From: Verrucomicrobiales bacterium
GTDB taxonomy: Bacteria; Actinomycetota; Acidimicrobiia; Acidimicrobiales; SHLQ01
Assembly (NCBI GenBank): GCA_047638715.1
Contig: JBLIMK010000003.1
Span: 17,161 to 81,160, forward strand
Reading direction: 5' to 3'
Length of the DNA stretch: 64,000 bases
The translations under genes and the position numbers were made by a program. Below the pieces are notes generated by a model, which had not been told where the DNA came from, ran no database searches, and worked only from the letters and a program-made list of their open reading frames with translations. Positions within the stretch are counted from its first letter, which is position 1. The number at the start of each line of letters is the position of its first letter. Shown here in pieces: positions 27,039 to 29,842 of this stretch.

Positions 27039-28223
27039 TTACGGGGCCAGCACGTTCATGGCCAGCAACGACTTCTTGTGACACGTTGGCCACTGGCTGA
27101 TCGGCGTGGTCGCCGCCCACCACGCCTTTGCAACCTGGTCTTGAACGCTCGCAGGCACCAAATGAGGAAGTACACCGTCGTACTCAGCAAAGCCCGCGAG
27201 GCGAGCAGCGGCATTCCACGTGTCCGGCAGCCATTGCACACCGCCATAGAAACGATTGCCGGTGTTGATGGCGTGGTTCCCGCCAGATTCGCATTCCAAC
27301 AACGCCGTCAAACCAACGTCTGTGAGGAGCGGCCAACCGAACTTATTAACTCCCTGGGGTGCCTGGTCCGCAGGAACTGCGTTGCCTGTCGGGGGAGCGA
27401 CGTCATCGCCGGGGTCGACCACAGGGGGTTGAGGGTTAACGGGCGCTCCGGTGAAATCGATGTCGCAAAACGTGAGATCGTCACCGTCGTCGATGTCGCA
27501 TTGGTCGCGACCCTTCCCCGCATTGAGAATGTCCGCGCCGGCGTCGCCATCGAGCCAATCGTGACCGGGTCCGCCGAACAATCGGTCGGACCCGTCATCG
27601 CCAGAAACGATGTCGTCCCCTTTGCCCCCTTCGAGACGATCATCACCGGGCCCGCCAGCGATTCGGTCCTTTCCGCGAAGTCCGCGAACGATGTCGTTGC
27701 CTTCGCCACCGAACAATGTGTCGGCGCCAAGGTTGCCGTGAATGAGGTCGTTGCCGCCCTCGCCTGAAATCCGGTCATTTCCGCCGTTGCCTTGGAGCCG
27801 GTCGTTCCCAGAACCGCCAACGATTCGATCCAAGCCCCAGCCGCCTCGTGCTCGATCGTTGCCACTCCCGAGCGTGATGTCGTCGTTGCCGGGCCCACCG
27901 GAGACCCTGTCGTTGCCATCGCCGGCGGTGATGATGTCGTTGCCCGCGCCTCCACAGATCACATCGTCGGCTCCTCCGCCGGTCAAGATGTCGTCGCCAC
28001 CGAAGCCGAGGATGAAGTCACGTGACGCGTTTCCACCGAAGAAGATGTTGTCGGTCTCGTCGCCGATCTGAATCCGATAACCCTTTGCTGTGGCAGTCTC
28101 GATCGTGAGACCAAGACAGAAATCATTCGGCGCCTGCGCGGCTCCAGCAGTACCTGCGCTGAGCGTTGACGCCATGAGGGAGACGGCAACACACACCGCA
28201 TTTCGAGATCGTGAGGTGAACAT
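27039..28223 (-). CDS. Secreted protein: hemolysin-type Ca-binding (RTX) repeats + Rpf-like transglycosylase domain
   Basis: Signal peptide; many GGxGxDxL nonapeptides; C-terminal LECESGGNHAINTGNRFYGGVQW..TW..QWPTC. Confidence 0.88.
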   Translation of the reverse strand: MFTSRSRNAVCVAVSLMASTLSAGTAGAAQAPNDFCLGLTIETATAKGYRIQIGDETDNIFFGGNASRDFILGFGGDDILTGGGADDVICGGAGNDIITAGDGNDRVSGGPGNDDITLGSGNDRARGGWGLDRIVGGSGNDRLQGNGGNDRISGEGGNDLIHGNLGADTLFGGEGNDIVRGLRGKDRIAGGPGDDRLEGGKGDDIVSGDDGSDRLFGGPGHDWLDGDAGADILNAGKGRDQCDIDDGDDLTFCDIDFTGAPVNPQPPVVDPGDDVAPPTGNAVPADQAPQGVNKFGWPLLTDVGLTALLECESGGNHAINTGNRFYGGVQWLPDTWNAAARLAGFAEYDGVLPHLVPASVQDQVAKAWWAATTPISQWPTCHKKSLLAMNVLAP

Positions 28224-28345
28224 GCTCAGGCTTTCGGTTCTTGCTCTGGCACGACGCCACGAAGCGGAAACAGGACGGTGTAAACCGGCCCTAATCCGTA
28301 AACGGTAACAGTTCGTAATGAGACCGCAATGGTCAGGCGAAATCG

Positions 28346-29113
28346 TTAGAGCGCGTCGACGAACTCGAGGATCGCGCTCTGTTGGTCATCCCCGAACCCG
28401 TAAATGAGGCTGCTGCCTTCGGTCAGATCTCCCGAAACCACCATCATCTGGCTATTCGCACGTACCCCAAAAGCTTGCCAGGTGGCGAAACTCGGATCCC
28501 ACAACATCGTCGGCGTCTCGAGGTCACCTTCGTCGAGGAAGCGATAGGCGAACGCGAAATCGTCCTGTGCTCCTACGCCAATGACCTGGACCTTGTCTTC
28601 GTTGTCTCGAGCGAACTGCTCGACGTCAGGCGCCTCACGGCGACAGGTCGGTCAATGCGGGGCAAAGAACCAGAGCAGAACAGGGCGGTCTCCCTTGACG
28701 ACCTGACGAAGCGTCGCGACGCCACCGTCGGCGACCGTCAACACCTCGATGTCGAGGACGTCGTCAGCGGGCTGCAGGTTCGCTTGGTTTACCGCTGCGT
28801 TCGCTTCGGCGTCTTCGGCACTCAATCGGGTGATCGTGAGGCCTGTTTCATTTGAGGTAGTTGCGACCGCACCTTCGGGAACGTCGGACTCCGCTACATC
28901 GGCTGTGTTATCGGAGGTCTCTGTTTTATCAGAACTGTCGGAGGAGGCCGGAGCTGCGTCTTGTGCCGCCGGCGCGGGTGCAGCGATGGCCGCCGCTGAG
29001 CTCACTTCGCCGCCACCGCCACCGCTACCGCACGCCGCTAAAGCGAGGGCGAATGCGGGGACCGCCACAAGCGCGAGTCGTCGGACTCCAGGGCGCGTCA
29101 TATCAGGATGCAT
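28346..29113 (-). CDS. TlpA/thioredoxin-fold redoxin lipoprotein with selenocysteine (TGA at 28654-28652)
   Basis: Lipobox LAAC; RPVLLWFFAPH-TGA-PTCRREAP continues in frame for 101 aa of thioredoxin fold to TAA 28348-28346. Start could be 29101, 29113 or 29170. Confidence 0.85.
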
Positions 29114-29173
29114 GAGGGCCGTAACCCACGTTCGGGGGATCGTATTCGCGTTATTCGGAAGAATTTTCATTCA

Positions 29174-29842
29174 TCATTCTCGAAAGTCAACGTAATCGTC
29201 GAGCGGTGCTCGCGTGGTTCGCAGCTCGTTAATGACGTGATCGGTGTCTTCGTATCCCATGGCCATCCCCACGATCATTCGCTGGTCGGCTGGGAGTTCG
29301 AGATGTTGGTGGATCACGTCTTCAAATTCGCGCCACGCGGCCTGCGGACAGGTGTGTAGCCCATGTTCGCGAGCGAGCGTCATGACGTTCGACATGTAAA
29401 GACCGAGGTCCATCCAACCGCCATAACTCATGCTCTCGTGAAGGGTAAAGATCATCCCAACAGGCGCATCGAAGAACTGAAAGTTCTTGCGCGCCTGCGC
29501 GGCCATCTTGTCGTACTCACCTTTTTGTATCCCGACCAGGCCGTACATGTCCCAACCGATCTTGCGACGGCGAGCGAGATACGGCTCGACGAATTCGGCG
29601 GGATAGTACGCGTCGTCCGTCGAGCTGTTGCCCGAATCGAAGGCCGCCTGCACGGCATCGACCAGGTCGTTTTTGGCGTCACCCTGTAGCACCACCACCT
29701 GCCATGGCTGGATGTTGGTCCCCGACGGTGCACGAGCCGCGTCGGTCAAGATCGCTCGAAGGAGACCCTCGGGAACCGGCTTCTCGGTGAAGGCGCGGAT
29801 CGAACGTCGACTGGTGATGGCTTCGGTTGCGCTCATGGACAT
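29174..29842 (-). CDS. Nitroreductase
   Basis: SRRSIRAF, APSGTNIQPW, FFDAPVG, GLHTCPQ, GMAMGY. Confidence 0.93.
   Translation of the reverse strand: MSMSATEAITSRRSIRAFTEKPVPEGLLRAILTDAARAPSGTNIQPWQVVVLQGDAKNDLVDAVQAAFDSGNSSTDDAYYPAEFVEPYLARRRKIGWDMYGLVGIQKGEYDKMAAQARKNFQFFDAPVGMIFTLHESMSYGGWMDLGLYMSNVMTLAREHGLHTCPQAAWREFEDVIHQHLELPADQRMIVGMAMGYEDTDHVINELRTTRAPLDDYVDFRE

Follow-up and report, generated by a model that had tools for sequence, protein, structure and literature searches.

A probable selenocysteine form of a lipid-anchored TlpA-like redoxin in Acidimicrobiales

The DNA analysed here (the window) is a 64,000-nucleotide stretch of contig JBLIMK010000003.1 from GenBank assembly GCA_047638715.1, a genome placed by GTDB in the order Acidimicrobiales. 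We investigated a gene on its minus strand (28346..29170; all features of the gene and of its neighbours described below lie on that strand) whose reading frame is interrupted by a single TGA. The gene very probably encodes one exported, lipid-anchored thiol-disulfide oxidoreductase of the TlpA/ResA/DsbE-DsbF type that uses selenocysteine (Sec, U) as the nucleophile of an H-U-P-T-C active site, and not two fragments. Sec insertion, export and lipidation are predicted from sequence. A surface-anchored selenocysteine oxidoreductase had already been proposed in an initial annotation of this DNA, and the TGA column, the pairing of Sec with Cys in homologues, a hairpin after the TGA, the predicted fold and the lipoprotein signal all point to such a protein.

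The reading frame and conservation of its TGA

The frame consists of 274 codons followed by TAA (29170..28346), its extent being given by translation with TGA read as U and by orthologues in 29 relatives. The sole interruption is the TGA at 28654..28652, codon 173. The open reading frame (ORF) that stops there (29170..28652) codes for 172 amino acids and ends ...RPVLLWFFAPH-TGA; past the TGA the frame stays open through PTCRREAPDVEQFARDNEDKVQVIGVGAQDD...MLWDPSFATWQAFGVRANSQMMVV...LEFVDAL to the TAA at 28348..28346, with no second stop, as the initial annotation had observed. Translation with TGA as U yields 274 residues with the site ...RPVLLWFFAPH-U-PTCRREAPDVEQFARD... and places the resolving Cys176 at 28645..28643. 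The longest frame begins at ATG 29170; the end of the gene first annotated, 29113, corresponds to Met20 of this frame. The true start is likely to be either Met20 or Met24 (29101), and a start at Met24 gives the most typical signal peptide, 23 residues long.

The Pfam Redoxin model matches residues 140-240, across the TGA, with E 4e-12 and a score of 46.5 bits (cut-off 26.6). When HMMER aligns the protein to Mycobacterium tuberculosis DsbF (3ios), WFFAPH[U]PTC pairs with WFWAPWCPTC, so that the TGA falls in the column of the attacking Cys, the first of the CxxC pair. This alignment, the orthologues and the Cys homologues are the basis for reading the TGA (28652..28654) as selenocysteine U173, the first position of a U-P-T-C redox motif. 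The TGA had been assigned initially to the attacking Cys of a W..PWCxxC motif; the assignment to the Cys column stands, but the residue in front of it is His and not Trp. The AhpC-TSA model of Pfam also matches residues 140-240 across the TGA. A peroxiredoxin of the TxxC/TxxU kind, with its peroxidatic Cys or Sec in a PxxxTxxC motif, was nevertheless rejected, as F-A-P-H-U lacks a Thr at the third position ahead of U and the AhpC-TSA match is weaker than that of Redoxin. No NCBIfam model passed its cut-off, the best being TrxC (34 bits, cut-off 125); the SelL-related model scored 19 bits against a cut-off of 120.

The conservation of the TGA was assessed by a six-frame search of 60 relatives together with the window's own genome. 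Within the genus, the best match contains exactly one TGA in 22 of the 25 other genomes (E 1e-56 to 1e-91), and the matches in genomes G001, G005 and G024 are weak, free of stops and at paralogue level only. TGA-containing matches were also found in 10 of 11 genomes from other genera of the family (E <= 3e-22) and in 4 of 24 genomes from other families of the order (E <= 1.5e-21). Thirty loci were compared further, the window's own and those of 29 Acidimicrobiales relatives returned by the search. All 30 have TGA at one shared alignment column, with both flanks conserved as the initial annotation would lead one to expect of a selenoprotein; H-U-P-T-C is invariant, and the TGA-carrying loci reach down to 37% protein identity. 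The ratio of nonsynonymous to synonymous substitution rates (dN/dS) was estimated pairwise by the Nei-Gojobori method from 23 of the 30 sequences, excluding the seven most divergent or cut-short ones (L039-L045). Of the 253 pairs, 176 were estimable. They gave a median dN/dS of 0.18 over the 30 codons that precede the TGA and of 0.19 over the 100 that follow; synonymous sites are close to saturated (the proportion of synonymous differences, pS, is 0.67).

The truncated products given by gene callers would fit a nonsense mutation or a sequencing error that left a pseudogene in this strain. The conserved TGA column and the dN/dS of 0.19 downstream for all practical purposes exclude this explanation, as well as the strain-specific TGA with relaxed downstream selection that the initial annotation had named as fatal to its proposal, and the fold needs both halves of the protein. 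Judged by these sequence comparisons, this is a genuine and conserved selenoprotein gene.

A profile search of 1.84 billion representative proteins returned 8595 matches with E <= 1e-3, among them 464 with E <= 1e-10 and 25 with E <= 1e-30. The homologues that we aligned are 28 of the best 150 profile matches together with P0002, a protein obtained from a word-indexed search. At the U column, Cys is found in all 26 full-length homologues, which are more distant than the Acidimicrobiales loci, mostly in the form APHCxxC. Metagenomic representatives such as P0002, P0014 and P0019 have this site in the same setting of lipobox, linker and domain as the Sec protein. The other three aligned homologues are short C-terminal pieces, two of which begin MCR.EAP, two residues past the TGA. 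The word-indexed search found 11 N-terminal pieces, each 153-210 residues long and confined to the region upstream of the TGA; the three that were inspected end ...WFFAPH or ...WFFSPH, and one of them is named 'hypothetical protein' in one source. The Sec-form family is present in the public record only as halves, which bears out the expectation that automatic annotation would split the gene.

The occurrence of both types of piece among public gene calls could also be taken as a sign of two genes, one for an N-terminal lipoprotein and one for an independent small C-terminal protein. We give this arrangement practically no credence. The earliest ATG, GTG or TTG in frame after the TGA is the ATG at 28507, 48 codons on, which opens an ORF of 53 amino acids (28346..28507), and consequently the downstream half cannot begin a complete domain, a point already made initially. 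A single Pfam domain and a single confident fold span the TGA, and the full-length Cys homologues are single proteins.

Candidate SECIS hairpin and the selenocysteine machinery

Downstream of the TGA lies a candidate bacterial selenocysteine insertion sequence (SECIS), the hairpin UCGAGC-AGUUC-GCUCGA (28607..28623), proposed on the basis of RNAalifold, pairing and energy. It has a stem of 6 bp and an apical loop AGUUC (28617..28613), the first nucleotide of which is 34 nt past the UGA. We aligned 72 nt around the TGA from the 30 loci; the alignment is without gaps because the codon register is conserved. RNAalifold finds a single consensus helix in it, and 95.4% of the cells in the six stem pairs are standard pairs. 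Pair 39/53 is CG in 20, UA in 8 and GU in 1 of the distinct sequences, pair 41/51 is AU in 25 and CG in 4, and neither is broken in any of them. None of 500 column shuffles matched the observed pairing or covariation score, and sliding the 3' arm by 1-3 nt lowered the pairing to 13-56%. Some of the compensatory substitutions also change the encoded peptide, from VEQFAR to VAQFAQ, an indication that the RNA itself is under selection. In the window's genome the hairpin is perfect, with a folding energy of -8.8 kcal/mol when taken alone.

According to the legend of Figure 2 in PMC13188914, the model of bacterial SECIS elements (bSECIS) calls for an apical loop of 3-9 nt on a stem of 4-16 bp, a G as the first or second loop nucleotide, most often with G or U next to it on the 3' side, a distance of 16-37 nt between UGA and loop, and a minimum free energy of -7.5 kcal/mol or lower. 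The AGUUC hairpin agrees with all the constraints given in that legend, with its 5-nt loop, G in second position followed by U, 6 bp, 34 nt and -8.8 kcal/mol. A second hairpin closer to the UGA (CGCC-GUGA-GGCG, 9 nt past it) was tried as the SECIS and rejected, since only 53% of its cells are paired in the 30 sequences, no better than in shuffled or slid controls.

The window's genome (3.64 Mb in 169 contigs, 93% complete, 3.4% contamination) contains most of the machinery for Sec insertion. The tRNA-Sec gene, selC, scores 65.3 bits against a gathering score of 47, and ARAGORN assigns it the anticodon TCA. It is located (L001, G000:C149:91-186, minus strand) within 100 nt of the end of a 4.6-kb contig, which means that its neighbours, possibly including selD, are not assembled with it. 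The selA gene (308 bits) is an open frame of 439 amino acids, and the adjoining selB is an open frame of 662 amino acids. The initial annotation had proposed a search for selA, selB, selC and selD, and the first three are thus present.

Several observations weigh against the proposed reading. The fourth gene, selD, was not found in this 93%-complete assembly with the models TIGR00476, NF002098 and AIRS_C, of which AIRS_C matched only genes of the purL and purM types, nor by tblastn of the assembly with a Sec-type SelD (from G008) and a fused-type SelD (from G006). At G000:C10:31072-31225, the genes that flank selD in G028, a genome of another genus, are 153 bp apart with no selD between them. 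The full 76 nt after the UGA fold no better than shuffled sequences (z -0.03), and the hairpin alone is only modestly better than shuffles (z -1.9; 8 of 200 shuffles are as good). Because the hairpin is located within coding sequence, the conserved peptide VEQFA accounts for part of its conservation. At 34 nt, the spacing comes close to the maximum that the bSECIS model allows and exceeds that in the other such genes of the genome (16-25 nt). An Rfam scan of 28000..29500 at E <= 10 found no family for the region, the only hits being chance matches to mir-84 and SNORD37; a bioRxiv preprint (10.64898/2026.04.03.716425) describes bacterial SECIS elements as poorly represented in Rfam. Finally, the case for selenium incorporation, export and activity is a computational one.

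The missing selD raises the possibility that the family is a true selenoprotein family but that this genome has lost selD, in which case UGA would terminate translation or be misread at a low level and the gene would be dead or dying. Absence of selD by both hidden Markov model and tblastn searches, and from sites syntenic with those in relatives, speaks for this scenario. We consider it improbable nonetheless. Outside the window's genome, 22 of 25 genomes of the genus have selD, and the three that lack it are 72-88% complete; among the genus genomes that are at least 90% complete, 13 of 14 have selD, the window's genome being the exception. The argument from synteny is weak because the position of selD is not conserved among the relatives. 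The assembly is fragmented and incomplete, the frames of selA and selB are intact, the tRNA-Sec scores above its gathering threshold and the hairpin is perfect. Since selA, selB and selC are kept along with at least eight redoxin genes that have an active-site TGA between open flanks, we read the absence of selD as an assembly gap, and a long-ago loss is unlikely.

It is also conceivable that a standard amino acid is inserted at UGA here, either through genome-wide reassignment or through SECIS-independent read-through as Trp or Cys. With selD absent from the assembly, Sec insertion is not demonstrable, and Cys would fit the CxxC site as well. We regard this explanation as highly implausible. 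TGA serves as an ordinary stop too, ending the upstream nitroreductase gene and 13 of the 30 orthologues, and is therefore not reassigned in the genome. A dedicated tRNA-Sec is present together with selA and selB, and TGAs stand at redox positions in eight redoxin genes, with a conserved SECIS-like hairpin following.

Within the genus, SelD itself occurs in two forms. One has about 350-440 amino acids and an in-frame TGA, the Sec form reading ...HGAGUGCK (L047, in G008). The other is a fusion of about 730-840 amino acids without a stop, with Cys at the site and an N-terminal part resembling FAD/NAD-binding oxidoreductases (L050, in G006). The nearest relatives G018, G020, G022 and G025 have the fused form, at about 735 amino acids.

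Protein architecture, known relatives and possible function

The N-terminus of the predicted protein reads …VPAFALALAAC|GSG. Counted from Met24, it comprises a predicted lipoprotein signal peptide, MTRPGVRRLALVAVPAFALALAA (29033..29101), followed by the putative lipobox Cys47 in LALAAC|G (29032..29030; numbering of the longest ORF). A lipoprotein pattern resembling PROSITE PS51257 is found in 26 of the 30 loci, that is, in all 26 with complete N-termini, L025, L039 and L042 being cut by a contig end and L034 masked with N. Residues 48-124 (28799..29029) form a low-complexity linker of about 77 residues rich in Ala, Ser, Asp, Glu and Thr, which may be read as a tether between the lipid anchor and the domain. 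Among the orthologues the distance from the lipobox Cys to U is 66-130 residues, mostly low-complexity linker. The initial annotation had likewise recognised a lipobox LAAC and a long Ala/Ser linker.

The remainder of the protein, residues 125-274 (28349..28798), is assigned to a TlpA/ResA/DsbE-like thioredoxin-fold domain by Pfam, AlphaFold2 and Foldseek. AlphaFold2, run on these residues with a 31-row alignment, produced a thioredoxin fold with a predicted local distance difference test score (pLDDT) of 95.0 and a predicted template modelling score (pTM) of 0.91, in which U173-P-T-C176 opens the first long helix (domain residues 50-65). Together with the Pfam and Foldseek matches, the model agrees with the thioredoxin fold, with extra N-terminal strands and a central insert, that is expected of TlpA/ResA/DsbE-like redoxins. 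A Foldseek comparison with the PDB placed M. tuberculosis DsbE/Mpt53 (1lu4) and DsbF (3ios) at the top, both with E about 4e-12, followed by Chlorobium DsbE, Bacillus subtilis ResA, pneumococcal Etrx1/2, CcmG and TlpA; the probability is 1.00 for DsbE, DsbF, ResA, CcmG and TlpA.

One feature typical of these redoxins is missing. At the site of the cis-Pro of thioredoxin-fold relatives, alignment and model place Asn239-Ser240 (28451..28456), in a loop before the beta strand QMMVV; in the model, a strand at domain residues 117-121 directly follows N115-S116. The loop reads A-N-S-Q, with N and S at least 90% conserved in the 31-row alignment, and Asn-Ser is found in all 30 Sec forms. The absence of cis-Pro was suspected initially and is borne out, Cys homologues having Gln-Pro where Asn239-Ser240 stands. 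Of the 26 Cys homologues, 20 have Pro at this column, 5 have Ser (preceded by Asn in four) and 1 has Thr. The homologues with the Asn-Ser loop are P0014, P0019, P0020 and P0037, and the subclade thus contains both Sec and Cys forms, so that loss of cis-Pro defines a subclade and is not a consequence of Sec. The metagenomic Cys homologues therefore differ from the Sec protein in having Cys in place of Sec and, in 20 of 26 cases, in retaining Pro in the loop. By fold and motif the protein is a member of the TlpA/ResA/DsbE-like group, atypical in its cis-Pro loop.

DsbF (3ios) is the best PDB match by sequence (E 7.6e-11) and, together with DsbE/Mpt53, the best by structure, with template modelling (TM) scores of 0.71-0.82. 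These are extracytoplasmic actinobacterial redoxins with a CPTC-type site, like the protein described here, but they have Cys in place of Sec, Trp in place of the preceding His, and Gln-Gln-Pro where the Sec protein has Ala-Asn-Ser; their identity to it is 25-28%, and unlike them the Sec protein is a predicted lipoprotein with a long linker. Pneumococcal Etrx1 and Etrx2 (4hqs, 4hqz, 2yp6; E about 1e-8, TM 0.69-0.80) resemble it as lipid-anchored extracytoplasmic TlpA-like redoxins; they differ in being Cys enzymes of Firmicutes with 19-24% identity. Etrx1 and Etrx2 reportedly supply methionine sulfoxide reductase.

Selenoproteins of a related kind are on record. TlpA-like thioredoxin-fold UxxC selenoproteins have been predicted since 2005 from Sec/Cys pairing and a SECIS-like hairpin (PMC1088965, PMC13188914), and the first predicted family listed in the table of a 2026 review (PMC13188914) dates from a Sargasso Sea study (PMC1088965). 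The same table includes a 'Prx-like thiol:disulfide oxidoreductase' (UxxC/UxxU) among predicted families. Compared by table description, the gene in the window fits the TlpA-like UxxC kind as broadly defined, sharing a TlpA-like thioredoxin fold and Sec at the first position of UxxC. The descriptions used for this comparison (PMC13188914, PMC1088965) mention neither a lipoprotein anchor, nor the HUPTC motif, nor loss of cis-Pro, and literature searches of main texts found no description of this lipoprotein clade with HUPTC and Asn-Ser, or of the family in Acidimicrobiales. Relative to the known kind, the lipid anchor, the His before Sec, the missing cis-Pro and the lineage-typical AGUU-loop SECIS are modest twists, and the finding does not overturn current understanding of selenoproteins. 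It does suggest that the order Acidimicrobiales keeps a lipid-anchored extracytoplasmic redoxin in selenocysteine form, and it supplies natural Sec/Cys pairs, with and without cis-Pro on one scaffold, as useful material for studying what an exported oxidoreductase gains from Sec.

We envisage that the AGUUC-loop hairpin, 34 nt downstream, would recruit SelB with Sec-tRNA(Sec) to the UGA at 28654..28652, and that the ribosome would insert Sec at codon 173 in place of termination. Following export of the precursor and its lipidation on Cys47, the flexible linker of about 77 residues would keep the protein tethered at the outer face of the membrane, where U173 and C176 could cycle between the selenol/thiol and selenylsulfide states, exchanging electrons with exported substrates.

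Provided that the protein is made, we lean slightly towards a reducing or repair role fed by CcdA, since the genome has a single CcdA/DsbD-type membrane protein and VKOR was not found in the genome search. Alternatives are an oxidase, the role reported for DsbE and DsbF of M. tuberculosis, or a peroxidase-type enzyme acting on small oxidants. No cytochrome c maturation genes adjoin the redoxin gene, and the sole CcdA/DsbD-type gene is on contig C75, beside a Cys-type redoxin; a role like that of ResA or CcmG is therefore unlikely. With cis-Pro missing, protein substrates handled in the classic manner are less certain, and Asn-Ser in its place suggests substrate handling unlike that of classic ResA or DsbE. 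A further speculation, which we consider rather unlikely, is that the Asn-Ser clade is not a protein-disulfide exchanger at all. Its members might instead be surface selenoenzymes acting on small oxidants, through a selenenic-acid/selenylsulfide cycle of the peroxidase type with Cys176 resolving, or on a dedicated partner encoded nearby, which could be the nitroreductase or the RTX/transglycosylase-like protein described below. Such enzymes would constitute a new functional class of extracytoplasmic Sec enzymes in Acidimicrobiales.

Neighbouring genes and other TGA-containing redox genes

Upstream on the same strand are genes for a 2OG-Fe(II) oxygenase and a nitroreductase. The nitroreductase-family gene (29174..29842; PF00881, E 1.5e-31) ends with a TGA stop 3 nt upstream of the ATG that opens the longest redoxin frame. 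On the downstream side, also co-directional and separated by a gap of 122 bp, is a gene for an RTX-repeat/transglycosylase-like protein (27039..28223; PF00353, PF06737) with nine matches to the RTX calcium-binding repeat and a C-terminal transglycosylase-like (Rpf-type) domain. In the 30 loci, for which only about 1.5 kb of flank was available and in several cases less, the nitroreductase gene is upstream in 12 and the RTX gene downstream in 17. The RTX protein contains Cys and can be read as secreted; it may be a substrate of the redoxin or its partner.

The window's genome (G000) has 15 Redoxin-family matches, of which eight, the HUPTC gene included, contain one in-frame TGA. In all eight the TGA is at a redox position (TPLU, WUPWC, YUSQE, FUTQE, TUPPF, WUGC, GULPC and HUPTC). 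The seven further genes are L055 (G000:C10:44732-45127), L056 (C67:18314-18769), L058 (C72:263-646), L059 (C113:801-1193), L063 (C120:1002-1421), G000:C56:25964-26302 and C31:9146-9427. An AGUU-loop hairpin of at least 5 bp is found 16-34 nt past the TGA in five of the eight, two of these five being paralogues, compared with 0.01 expected from the 403 AGUU-loop hairpins on both strands of the whole genome. The genome looks selenoprotein-rich, and the AGUU-loop hairpin may offer a practical, lineage-specific SECIS signature for re-annotation.

The WUGC gene fits the published 'UGC-containing TlpA' kind. In the relatives, many weaker paralogue matches hold two TGAs within the redoxin domain, which could represent UxxU sites like those of the 'Prx-like thiol:disulfide oxidoreductase' kind. 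When the 403 AGUU-loop hairpins were scanned for an in-frame TGA 13-40 nt upstream with both flanks open, 33 candidates were obtained, mostly noise-like. Three of them, DWUPYC, VUPVC and FHUAAGAR, resemble additional selenoprotein genes; the candidates singled out lie at G000:C7 near 45536 (plus strand), C24 near 15761 (minus strand) and C10 near 22081 (plus strand), and FHUAAGAR is presumably a rhodanese-like site.

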